Shown here one piece after another: positions 5,436-8,290 of a stretch of 37,504 bases of DNA. The first letter of the stretch is position 1; each line of letters starts with the position of its first letter. The DNA comes from a virus (Duplodnaviria > Heunggongvirae > Uroviricota > Caudoviricetes): the IMG/VR virus record IMGVR_UViG_2660238580_000001, positions 1-37,504 of that record; one strand, 5' to 3'. The position numbers and the translations under genes are program-made. A model generated the notes under the pieces. That model was given only the letters and a program-made list of their open reading frames with translations, made no database searches and was not told the DNA's origin.

Positions 5436-6110
5436 TTAGGCTTTGATTTTGTATCTTCTTGGTTTTCCTGAGAAAATCACAGTTCCAATTATAGAGCAAT
5501 TACCGTTGATCTTAATGTAAGGCTCAGGCCAGTTTGGGTTTAACGCTTTGAGATAACGCTGTGTCCCATCTTCTATCAACCTTTTGAAGGTGGTTTCACC
5601 TGTATCGTGCATCAATGCAATAACGTCGTCACCGTGGCAGGCAGGTACTTCAGGATCGACAAAAATCATGTCTCCCGGGCGGTACTCATCAATCATTGAA
5701 TCACCTATCACCCGCAAGATATAAGTCATTTCCCCACAGGGTACAGGGCAGGGATACGTTTCTGCTGTGCTCAAATCAACCTCAGAATATCCAACTTCTT
5801 TCCATGCTCCGGCCTGTACCCATGATATGACAGGGACTAATGTGATTTGTTTATTAGTGATTGAAACATCAGGTTTTTTTGTGATGTTCGTTGTCTGGTG
5901 TTCTTGATCGAGCCATCCGACAGGCAGGTCGAAACATTTTTCGATGTGTCGTGCCATGCTGTCACCGATATTTTTAGTAGCACCATCTCCCATAAACCTG
6001 CTGGTCTGGGTTGGCTCGCGATCAATCATAGTGGCAAAGGAAGAATTCCCGCCAACACCATCTCTCAGTTTTCTGGCGTTAGACCGCCGGATGTCATGGA
6101 TTGTTTTCAT
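5436..6110 (-). CDS. cI-like prophage repressor (HTH plus LexA/S24-type autocleavage domain)
   Basis: 224 aa; N-terminal HTH region and C-terminal S24 peptidase-like domain (GDSM serine motif, conserved Lys near C-terminus); ATG at 6110 has no SD and lies 15 bp from an operator, suggesting a leaderless mRNA as for lambda cI. Confidence 0.88.
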   Translation of the reverse strand: MKTIHDIRRSNARKLRDGVGGNSSFATMIDREPTQTSRFMGDGATKNIGDSMARHIEKCFDLPVGWLDQEHQTTNITKKPDVSITNKQITLVPVISWVQAGAWKEVGYSEVDLSTAETYPCPVPCGEMTYILRVIGDSMIDEYRPGDMIFVDPEVPACHGDDVIALMHDTGETTFKRLIEDGTQRYLKALNPNWPEPYIKINGNCSIIGTVIFSGKPRRYKIKA

Positions 6111-6124
6111 AACGAAATTAAAAC

Positions 6125-6196
6125 CCTTGTACCGTTAAGGTACAAGTATCTTGAAGGTTCATTTCAATCATGTAATATGTACACTGGAGGTACATA
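6125..6196. promoter_or_regulatory. OR-type operator/promoter region between cI and cro
   Basis: Palindrome CTTGTACC-GTTAA-GGTACAAG (6125-6145) and ATGTAC-N7-GTACAT (6176-6194); rightward promoter TTGAAG (6150-6155)-N16-TAATAT (6172-6177). Confidence 0.6.
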
Positions 6197-6200
6197 TCGT

Positions 6201-6401
6201 ATGAAAGCGTATTGGGACTCTTTAACCAAAGAACAGCAGGGCGAGTTGGCCGGAAAAGTTGGCTCAACACCTGGCTACTTACGGCTGGTTTTCAATGGCT
6301 ATAAAAAAGCCAGTTTTGTGCTGGCTAAAAAACTTGAGCAATGCACGTCAGGTGCAATTACGAAATCTGACTTAAGACCGGATATCTATCCGAAAGATTA
6401 G
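6201..6401 (+). CDS. cro: Cro-like HTH regulator (66 aa)
   Basis: ATG at 6201 preceded by GGAGG (6186-6190); small basic HTH protein MKAYWDSLTKEQQGELAGKVGSTPGYLRLVFNG; divergent from the repressor. Confidence 0.8.
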   Translation: MKAYWDSLTKEQQGELAGKVGSTPGYLRLVFNGYKKASFVLAKKLEQCTSGAITKSDLRPDIYPKD

Positions 6402-6432
6402 CAGAACACTTTCAATTTTTAACCACAGAACG

Positions 6433-7002
6433 ATGAGGCTAATCGTGGGTAAGCATCACTGGAAAATAGAAAAACAGCCTGAGTGGTACGTGAAAGCTGT
6501 CAGAAAAACTATCGCGGCGTTGCCGGGTGGTTACGCTGAAGCGGCTGACTGGCTCGATGTAACAGAAAACGCTTTATTCAACCGCCTTCGTGCAGATGGC
6601 GATCAGATTTTCCCGCTGGGATGGGCAATGGTTTTACAGCGTGCTGGTGGCACTCACTTCATTGCTGATGCTGTGGCGCAGTCTGCAAATGGCGTCTTTG
6701 TGTCTCTTCCTGACGTCGAGGATGTGGACAACGCCGATATTAACCAGCGTCTGCTGGAAGTCATTGAACAGATCGGCAGTTATTCAAAACAGATTCGTTC
6801 AGCAATCGAAGACGGTGTAGTGGAACCGCATGAGAAGACAGCAATTAACGACGAGCTGTATCTCTCAATTTCGAAGCTGCAGGAGCATGCAGCACTTGTC
6901 TACAAAATTTTTTGCATTTCAGAAAGTAATGACGCCCGCGAGTGTGCAGCTCCGGGCGTCGTGGCGTCGATTGCTTCTGGTTGTGGAGAAACTAACGCAT
7001 GA
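6433..7002 (+). CDS. cII-like regulatory protein (YdaT / CP76-type)
   Basis: 189-aa ORF immediately after cro, the usual cII position; resembles YdaT-like prophage proteins from memory; family not confirmed. Confidence 0.5.
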
Positions 7003-7337
7003 ACAGTTTAACAACACACTACCGTCGCTCGCAACTGATTGCGCTTCCTGTACCGGGTGGAAAAGCGAAGGTGGAATATTGCTATGCAGTGAATGTACCA
7101 GGTGACAGGGAAATTGTAACCCACAGCTTTGCAGAGTGGGCTGTGGGTGATTTCAACCGGCAGAAGGAGACAGTCCTTTGCGACAAGTTAACCGCTGGTT
7201 CAAAGATCACTACGGAGTACCCGTCAGAGTCATTCGTTGGGAGCCGGAAACACAACGGGTTATCTACCTCCGCGAAGGCTATGAGCATGAGTGCTTCAGC
7301 CCGCTCGAACAGTTTCGTCGTAAATTCAGGGAAATAG
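6999..7337 (+). CDS. Hypothetical protein; reading frame ambiguous (possible frameshift or two overlapping small genes)
   Basis: ATG at 6999 with GGAGA RBS; protein-like to about 7195, then serine-rich; an alternative frame (TTG 7178 after AAGGAGA, to stop at 7357) reads [40 protein letters not shown] and looks more protein-like. Confidence 0.35.
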
Positions 7338-7346
7338 AGGTCGGTC

Positions 7347-8288
7347 ATGAGCACTAAATTAACCGGCTATGTATGGGATGGTTGCGCTGCGTCAGGCATG
7401 AAGTTATCCAGCGTGGCAATTATGGCCCGCCTGGCTGATTTCAGTAATGACGAAGGTGTGTGCTGGCCATCAATTGAAACCATTGCCCGCCAGATTGGCG
7501 CGGGGATGAGTACCGTCAGAACGGCTATCGCACGGCTGGAAGCAGAAGGCTGGTTAACGCGTAAGGCGCGTCGCCAGGGTAACCGCAATGCGTCGAATGT
7601 TTATCAGCTTAACGTTGCGAAGCTTCAGGCAGCGGCATTTTCTCAACTGTCAGATTCTGACCCGTCAAAATCTGACGCATCAAAATCTGACCCGTCAAAA
7701 TTTGATGCGTCGAAATCTGGCAAAAAAGCGGGTTTTCACCCGTCAGAATCTGGCGGGGATCCGTCAGTAAAATCAAAACATGATCCGTCAGATAAAAAAA
7801 CTTCTCGTCCGGACGCTTCGCAACCGGACATGAAGAAGGATGAACAGGATTTTTTAACTCGTCATCCTGATGCGGTTGTATTCAGCTCTAAAAAGCGCCA
7901 GTGGGGAACGCAGGATGATTTGACCTGCGCACAGTGGCTCTGGAAAAAAATCATCGCCCTGTACGAGCAGGCCGCCGAATGTGACGGCGAGGTGGTTCGT
8001 CCCAAAGAACCTAACTGGACAGCCTGGGCAAACGAAATTCGCCTGATGTGTGTGCAGGATGGTCGTACTCACAAACAAATCTGCGAGATGTACAGCCGCG
8101 TCAGCCGCGATCCGTTCTGGTGCCGTAACGTGCTCAGCCCGTCGAAGTTGCGGGAAAAATGGGATGAGCTTTCCCTGCGCTTATCGCCGTCCGTCAGCAC
8201 GCACACAGAAAAACGTGAAGACCCGTACTTCAAAGCCAGTTACGACAACGTGGACTACAGCCAGATCCCGGCAGGATTCAGGGGGTGA
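7347..8288 (+). CDS. Replication initiation protein (N-terminal HTH domain, iteron-encoded linker, C-terminal domain)
   Basis: 313 aa; N-terminal HTH-like region; central low-complexity linker SDSDPSKSDASKSDPSKFDASKSG encoded by DNA iterons, as in lambda O-type initiators. Confidence 0.78.
   Translation: MSTKLTGYVWDGCAASGMKLSSVAIMARLADFSNDEGVCWPSIETIARQIGAGMSTVRTAIARLEAEGWLTRKARRQGNRNASNVYQLNVAKLQAAAFSQLSDSDPSKSDASKSDPSKFDASKSGKKAGFHPSESGGDPSVKSKHDPSDKKTSRPDASQPDMKKDEQDFLTRHPDAVVFSSKKRQWGTQDDLTCAQWLWKKIIALYEQAAECDGEVVRPKEPNWTAWANEIRLMCVQDGRTHKQICEMYSRVSRDPFWCRNVLSPSKLREKWDELSLRLSPSVSTHTEKREDPYFKASYDNVDYSQIPAGFRG
7655..7800. repeat. Iteron array (candidate replication origin) inside the initiator gene
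   Basis: At least five copies of CCGTCA(A/G)AATCTG(A/G)-like repeats, followed by an A-rich stretch (GATAAAAAAA). Confidence 0.6.
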
Positions 8289-8290
8289 TC

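Follow-up and report, generated by a model that had tools for sequence, protein, structure and literature searches.

Two small early genes, ymfM and a DUF4222 gene, overlap out of frame in an e14-type lambdoid prophage

Does the interval between the cII-like regulator gene and the replication initiator gene of an e14-type prophage hold one frameshifted gene, or two small genes that overlap? The question arises in IMG/VR virus record IMGVR_UViG_2660238580_000001, of which positions 1 to 37,504 (37,504 nt, the whole stretch analysed and hereafter the window) represent a lambdoid prophage of the e14/SfII type, with phages SfII, SfIV and PhiR49 among its close relatives. A first-pass annotation had described an open reading frame (ORF) opening with an ATG at 6999 supported by a ribosome-binding site, and another opening with a TTG at 7178 after AAGGAG and ending at 7357 inside the initiator gene, and both are present as described. 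The first (ymfM, referred to as frame A) and the second (a DUF4222 gene, frame B, which lies in the -1 register relative to frame A and closes with the TAA at 7355–7357) share 160 nt out of frame. We consider both to be genuine genes of the early rightward operon, each with its own initiation site, and give this explanation as a whole a probability of roughly 80%. The feature is thus an out-of-frame overlap, conserved among relatives, between two small early genes of the prophage, and overlapping genes are of a known kind in phages; new here is a YmfM tail that is free of stops while unconstrained in sequence.

Both frames could be identified by homology. The interval 6990–7370 is 99% identical at the nucleotide level to ymfM of the Escherichia coli K-12 element e14 (b1148, ‘cell division inhibitor YmfM’) and the gene order is the same, making frame A orthologous to b1148 by sequence and by synteny. 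Frame B is a full-length member of the Pfam family DUF4222 (PF13973), a family without known function: it scored 69 bits against a gathering cut-off of 27 bits, the match spanning residues 1–54 of the TTG-started ORF and positions 1–52 of the 53-position profile. Its product is identical to the RefSeq protein WP_001250269.1 and is also assigned to phrog_1343. The subfamily found here is distinguished within the family by an upstream ORF that overlaps it in the +1 frame, and by its last 6 codons, which the 5' end of the initiator gene provides. The allele is common, as 551 bases around the overlap matched 2684 of 5426 complete E. coli genomes, with 481 records at ≥99% identity.

The two frames were separated by asking where selection acts on amino acids. 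Single-nucleotide polymorphisms (SNPs) were taken from 69 distinct near-identical alleles; the first two IMG/VR scans had yielded near-identical loci only, which served for population SNPs and not for divergence, and the divergence set consisted of relatives from Klebsiella, Citrobacter, Raoultella, Atlantibacter, Phytobacter and Pantoea. Between 6999 and 7177 the variable sites lay mainly at third positions of frame A (by our tally approximately 18 synonymous and 8 non-synonymous), and between 7178 and 7337 16 variable sites changed the frame-A amino acid but not that of frame B, and only about 2 sites were synonymous in frame A. All three differences from K-12 likewise leave the frame-B protein unchanged and alter that of frame A. 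Position 7148, the first base of a frame-B TGA, is polymorphic (T to A, C or G), with every change synonymous in ymfM. The comparison with divergent relatives gave the same picture: the ratio of non-synonymous to synonymous substitution rates (dN/dS, or omega) was 0.24–0.42 over the first ~60 codons of ymfM, and across the overlap it was 0.04–0.17 for frame B, with a proportion of synonymous differences (pS) of 0.6–0.85 indicating saturated synonymous sites, whereas omega for frame A exceeded 1. Frame A is therefore not selected for its amino acids in the overlap, and the DUF4222 gene, with purifying selection in its own frame and 26 invariant residues among 8 divergent members, is protein-coding. 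The N-terminal domain of YmfM (N-domain) could be aligned across 26 divergent homologues. Amino-acid-level constraint thus moves from frame A to frame B at approximately 7178, in keeping with the first-pass impressions that frame A loses its protein-like character near 7195 and that the second frame is the more protein-like of the two.

Our comparison of 53–54 distinct lineages, from many enterobacterial genera, further revealed that the two-frame layout recurs in 53 of them. The DUF4222 start falls at the same aligned codon in 54 lineages (ATG in 46, GTG in 5 and TTG in 3), and a tetramer resembling a Shine-Dalgarno (SD) sequence lies within 20 nt of it in 47 of the 54. The two genes also occur in other arrangements, including an adjacent, non-overlapping pair in which a 60-aa N-domain homologue ends 1 nt before the DUF4222 ATG (L234–L238), a locus where an ANT antirepressor gene sits between the N-domain gene and DUF4222 (L224), one where the replication gene comes immediately after an N-domain gene of 78 aa, DUF4222 being absent (L222), and an Stx2 phage that has DUF4222 without the N-domain. 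A phmmer search of 1.84 billion representative proteins returned a small family of 56 clusters, with both short (~59–68 aa) and long (~100–123 aa) members.

The overlapped part of frame A, namely the C-terminal tail of YmfM, had no stop at any point of the overlap in 53 of 53 lineages, and the third frame was closed in all. A stop in frame A requires a frame-B codon ending in TA or TG followed by one that starts with A or G. At these risk positions valine was encoded by GTT (99 occurrences) or GTC (44) and never by GTA (0) or GTG (0), as against GTT 14, GTC 34 and GTR (R, purine) 21 of 69 elsewhere in the same gene; leucine was encoded by CTT (35) or CTC (38), with no other codon (0), as against CTG in 36 of 69 elsewhere. 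When synonymous codons were resampled according to the usage of neighbouring genes, the probability of an open frame A was 0.073 per lineage (8.5% for the present sequence), and under the most conservative null, permutation of each gene's own codons, it was 0.27 per lineage. Clustering of the sequences gave 26 groups at 85% identity and 6 at 80%, which defines how far they can be counted as independent. At the three strict risk columns, a neighbour-joining tree required at least 19 independent changes of the third base, all of them T↔C, in contrast to free four-fold sites, which were 45% purine. Stand-alone DUF4222 genes, which act as natural controls, carry up to five +1-frame stops, distributed across most of the ORF. 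The tail also departs in composition from stop-free simulations, being richer in small residues (0.53 vs 0.44) and poorer in hydrophobic ones (0.23 vs 0.32), with the same direction in 94% of lineages. Across the overlap, then, frame A is without amino-acid constraint, yet shows stop avoidance and compositional bias, while frame B is strongly constrained; the YmfM tail, unconstrained in sequence and predicted to be disordered, is probably kept stop-free by selection. The first-pass annotation had called this serine-rich tail implausible, a judgement that is right for its amino-acid sequence and incomplete in that it passes over the probable selection to stay open.

A candidate reason for keeping the frame open is offered by the junction with the next gene. 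In 46 of 49 lineages exactly 9 nt separate the frame-A stop from the start of the following gene, and this is so for O-type and DnaD-like replication genes alike; where DUF4222 ends is variable, its overlap with the following gene ranging over 11–92 nt. In the window the DUF4222 codons ATA-GAG supply the TAG of frame A, the final G of which is also the first base of GAGG in the initiator ribosome-binding site, and the first 11 nt of the initiator gene (ATG at 7347) double as the last codons and stop of DUF4222. Upstream, the ymfL TGA and the ymfM ATG overlap as ATGA. The ATGA together with the conserved 9-nt gap constitutes the geometry of coupled junctions, and coupling is proposed here from this geometry. 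We infer that ribosomes translating ymfM must reach the initiator start, either for coupling or to avoid polarity, and this would explain an open frame in spite of a drifting sequence. In the proposed sequence of events, the SOS response would remove the cI-like repressor YmfK, ribosomes would couple from ymfL into ymfM via the ATGA, and they would translate on through the DUF4222 gene to terminate on the initiator ribosome-binding site; termination there would couple initiator translation to that of ymfM and avoid an untranslated, polarity-prone gap, and DUF4222 would be produced by internal initiation on the same mRNA. A search for structure hiding either the initiator start or the DUF4222 start found folds no better than those of shuffled sequences (z = +1.06 and -0.97). 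A small hairpin pairing the SD with the start (7163–7180), seen in the fold, was dropped, the junctions of other lineages not being complementary by eye.

The reading of the region as a single gene translated through a -1 shift near 7150–7200 (programmed, or the result of an indel or sequencing error), with a fusion product of ~118 aa, draws on the fact that almost every lineage has the N-domain gene next to DUF4222 and on the existence of fused ORFs, one of them created by a G6-to-G7 tract change in SfV-type prophages (P0153, 109 aa, 47 collection blocks) and rare others in e14-type sequences (P0030, P0052, P0059, P0065). However, each of the e14-type fused or truncated proteins has a different junction, which points to independent indels, and the fusions make up ~2% of cluster members by our tally. 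No slippery heptamer (X_XXY_YYZ) occurs in the stretch, and the sporadic matches in 7 of the 54 lineages are non-homologous, so that none is conserved. In six lineages (L217, L188, L219, L196, L198, L206) a frame-B stop lies 0–6 nt upstream of the DUF4222 start, leaving no room for a conserved shift. No significant stimulatory RNA structure was detected downstream of the junction, the fold of 7130–7230 giving z = -0.97 with 33 of 200 shuffles folding at least as well. To these are added the DUF4222 gene's own ATG, GTG or TTG start with its SD sequence, and the stop-then-start layout of L234. Programmed -1 frameshifting was accordingly rejected on the heptamer scan, the frame-B stops and the RNA folds, all negative, and sequencing error or a pseudogene was ruled out because the allele is widespread and nearly invariant, the sequence in the window being the majority allele across thousands of genomes. 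We regard a single shifted gene as very improbable, and of the two possibilities left by the first-pass annotation it is two genes that holds for the present lineage; the comparison with homologues that it had proposed, looking for a single uninterrupted ORF, found a truly fused one only in the related SfV-type lineage. The converse view, which accepts only the 112-aa ymfM and dismisses the DUF4222 ORF as a spurious shadow, has the weight of annotation behind it, since ymfM alone is annotated in the K-12 reference and in many phage records (the genome inspected that had been annotated by the Prokaryotic Genome Annotation Pipeline, PGAP, has the 59-aa DUF4222 coding sequence only). It is refuted by the substitution pattern, and a full-length match to a curated Pfam family, the invariant residues, a confident predicted fold and stand-alone copies in other contexts also stand against it, so that it deserves next to no credence.

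A more serious alternative accepts both the N-domain and DUF4222 and takes the open tail for an accident of composition or shared ancestry. That the tail lacks amino-acid constraint and is predicted to be disordered would fit such an accident, as would the existence of N-domain proteins of 60–78 aa without any such tail and the permutation probability of 0.27 per lineage, which is not tiny. Against this, frame A has stayed open in every lineage despite saturated synonymous sites in frame B; GTR and CTR/TTR codons are absent from the risk positions despite the many independent changes there; the +1 frame is interrupted by several stops in most DUF4222 genes that stand alone; and neither the fixed 9-nt distance to the next start nor a compositional bias that is consistent across lineages would be expected of it. 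We therefore think it unlikely. Several points do weigh against two overlapping genes with a tail selected for openness. In one stand-alone DUF4222 group (L226–L229) the +1 frame is open save for a single stop near the 3' end, and the stop-avoidance statistics hinge on the count of independent lineages, the conservative null with 6 lineages giving a combined probability of ~4e-4. The case for coupling comes from geometry, with no significant RNA structure at either junction, and ribosomes translating DUF4222 arrive at the initiator start as well and might in principle supply the coupling. As to expression, what has been reported is induction of ymfM mRNA, late in the SOS response, and the papers examined report no protein evidence.

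Variants of the overlap were seen in several relatives. SfV-type prophages carry a G6 tract 12 nt before the DUF4222 start (L173, phage SfV, ~1135–1145, compared with L240–L242, ~1335–1345) that has no equivalent in the present stretch; the G7 alleles could be a natural fusion arguing for a physical partnership of the two products, or possibly a slippage-prone switch. In relatives from SfV, Stx phages and Citrobacter braakii, frame A runs 680–1000 nt into the downstream gene without stopping first (L173 1001–1837, SfV orf37; L175 1130–1963; L219), the downstream gene belonging to the Ash family (PF10554) in L240/L242; these run-on ORFs are annotated as proteins of 277–278 aa (longer in L219) under the names ‘immunity region’, ‘Rha’, ‘antirepressor’ or ‘peptidase’. 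A locus of Kosakonia quasisacchari (L194, 71–253) is the sole lineage with a premature DUF4222 stop (45 aa), frame A remaining open, the reverse of the usual pattern. Some DUF4222 database entries have N-terminal extensions (P0096, 69 aa; P0097, 73 aa) or a C-terminal extension (P0092, 86 aa), and these longer versions look like allele-specific read-through, indels or annotation choices and not true longer proteins.

The overlap bears directly on a phenotype mapped to this gene. In K-12, ymfM is the long-sought sfiC, an SOS-inducible, SulA-independent inhibitor of the Z ring that also serves as a tool for making filamentous cells. Ansari et al. (bioRxiv 10.1101/2020.11.19.390815) expressed the ymfM ORF from pBAD24 and obtained filaments without Z rings, independently of SulA, SlmA and MinC; earlier library clones had covered ymfL' through ymfM to ymfN'. 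The same work treats ymfM as one 112-aa gene and leaves the nested DUF4222 ORF unmentioned (bioRxiv 10.1101/2020.11.19.390815), and no paper in the literature searched mentions ymfM and DUF4222 together. The ymfM ORF, however, includes the DUF4222 SD sequence, its TTG and codons 1–53, corresponding to the entire Pfam domain. The published filamentation constructs that were examined all have both reading frames, so the phenotype is not assignable to one of them: the SOS-inducible division block (SfiC) mapped to ‘ymfM’ stems from the ymfM product, the DUF4222 product or both. Three single-base changes that separate the two frames were verified in silico, at bases that K-12 e14 shares: T7189G creates a TGA at YmfM codon 64 and keeps the DUF4222 valine (GTT to GTG), C7181T creates a TGA at DUF4222 codon 2 and keeps the YmfM cysteine (TGC to TGT), and T7178C turns the DUF4222 start from TTG into CTG and keeps the YmfM leucine (CTT to CTC). 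A bolder version holds that the SfiC block is caused by, or requires, the DUF4222 β-barrel made from the internal TTG; that the overlap is a selected device in which translation of the tail serves the initiator and gates DUF4222 initiation; and that the N-domain and DUF4222 proteins act together physically, a partnership suggested by the natural G7 fusion allele. We put this forward as a tentative proposal, conceivable but on balance doubtful.

Structures of both products were predicted with AlphaFold2. The DUF4222 protein was modelled as a small β-barrel with a predicted local distance difference test (pLDDT) score of 84.7. In YmfM, residues 10–66 form three strands and two helices (pLDDT 61–79), the tail has no secondary structure (pLDDT 34–42), and the whole model averages 56. 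A fold search with the DUF4222 model gave KOW, SH3 and Tudor barrels (template modelling, TM, scores of 0.55–0.69, E above 0.06) and uncharacterised phage DUF1653 proteins, all matches being generic (E > 0.009), and from such generic small-barrel matches no specific DUF4222 function can be derived. Sequence searches found no relative of solved structure for YmfM or the DUF4222 protein, and the defence-system models of PADLOC matched neither. Four large proteins (P0210, P0227, P0232, P0237; 1076–1700 aa) match residues ~19–50 of the YmfM N-domain in 6–13 repeated stretches, which reflects either a repeat module with a similar β-hairpin motif or a compositional artefact.

Comparison with known systems places the arrangement among, and apart from, other phage overlaps. 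The K-12 e14 ymfM (SfiC) locus has the same neighbours, with ymfK, ymfT and ymfL upstream and an O-like gene downstream, and differs in that its downstream initiator is a truncated chimera (ymfN/oweE). In the Rz/Rz1 pair of phage lambda, one gene starts within another, the two being read in different frames of a shared mRNA, both are maintained, and both products are sequence-constrained as far as is known; here, by contrast, DUF4222 alone is constrained in its amino acids, and the overlapped part of ymfM shows stop avoidance and compositional bias only. The tail-chaperone genes G and GT of lambdoid phages are expressed by programmed -1 frameshifting, with the downstream ORF in the -1 frame and an extended overlap. 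Unlike them, the present pair has neither slippery heptamer nor stimulatory structure, and its downstream ORF has its own start, with in-frame stops just before it. The layout resembles that of coliphage 186, where a CII gene of the CP76 family is followed by two small overlapping genes (cII–fil–dhr), fil (75 aa) encoding a cell-division inhibitor and dhr (66 aa) an inhibitor of host replication, although fil and dhr overlap by 14 nt only, against 160 nt here. Homology of the products was tried and rejected: the N-domain aligned to Fil (PF10893) with an hhalign probability of 0.1% and none of 26 N-domain sequences matched PF10893, and DUF4222 aligned to Dhr with a probability of 0.2%.

The coordinates of the features are collected in Table 1. 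A scan of 6000–8400 found no sigma-70-like promoter, and there is accordingly no sign of an internal DUF4222 promoter; no Rfam family was found within 6300–7700. Shinhara et al. 2011 (PMC3175480) described an abundant cis-antisense small RNA of K-12, ECS003, sequenced as 116 nt and seen at ~70 nt on Northern blots, which is antisense to the junction of ymfL with ymfM and to the ribosome-binding site of ymfM. By homology with K-12 its equivalent in the window would lie at ~6950–7060 on the minus strand, a position that recalls the OOP RNA of lambda, and scans of that region matched no Rfam family and revealed no consensus promoter. The minus strand also has a 90-codon shadow ORF opposite the overlap (7082–7354). 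Some phage records annotate neither of the two genes or a minus-strand shadow ORF instead, as in phage vB_EcoS-733R5, where the equivalent ORF (L166 1335–1622) is annotated as hypothetical in place of either real gene; the shadow ORF is most likely an annotation artefact. Within the O-like gene, 7656–7719 holds 4.3 tandem copies of a 15-bp unit (TCTGACCCGTCAAAA), presumably origin iterons.

Table 1. Features of the early region of the prophage, with positions in the window.
Feature	Coordinates	Strand	Basis or remark
LexA-like cI repressor	5436–6110	minus	followed by a cro-like gene, then ymfL
ymfL, cII-like early regulator	6433–7002	+	PF06892 Phage_CP76, E=1.3e-13; NF041471 YmfL, E=2.7e-50; annotated ymfL
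ymfM Shine-Dalgarno sequence GGAG	6985–6988	+	ATG 10 nt downstream; sequence
ymfM ORF (frame A, 112 aa)	6999–7337	+	phrog_1170, E=8.5e-70; 99% identity to K-12 b1148
YmfM conserved N-terminal domain (~62 aa)	6999–7184	+	sole part of frame A under amino-acid constraint
Frame-B TGA stop	7148–7150	+	closes the DUF4222 frame 27 nt before its start
DUF4222 Shine-Dalgarno sequence AAGGAG	7164–7169	+	TTG 8 nt downstream; sequence
DUF4222 gene (frame B, 59 aa, TTG start)	7178–7357	+	PF13973, E=2.6e-19; RefSeq coding sequence WP_001250269.1
YmfM C-terminal tail (~50 aa, Ser/Thr/Ala/Gly-rich)	7185–7334	+	+1 frame of the DUF4222 gene
ymfM stop TAG (7335–7337) and 9-nt spacer with GAGG	7335–7346	+	directly 5' of the initiator ATG; proposed coupling joint
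O-like replication initiator	7347–8288	+	HTH_36 and related matches; annotated replication protein O

Half of the annotated YmfM is thus an out-of-frame reading of a more strongly conserved gene, and, with both frames carried by the filamentation constructs, SfiC may be either product or both. The locus provides a clear-cut natural case of overlapping genes in which selection on one frame probably does no more than keep it open, and as such it bears on the origin of overlapping genes, on the choice of frame by annotation pipelines and on the annotation of E. coli itself.

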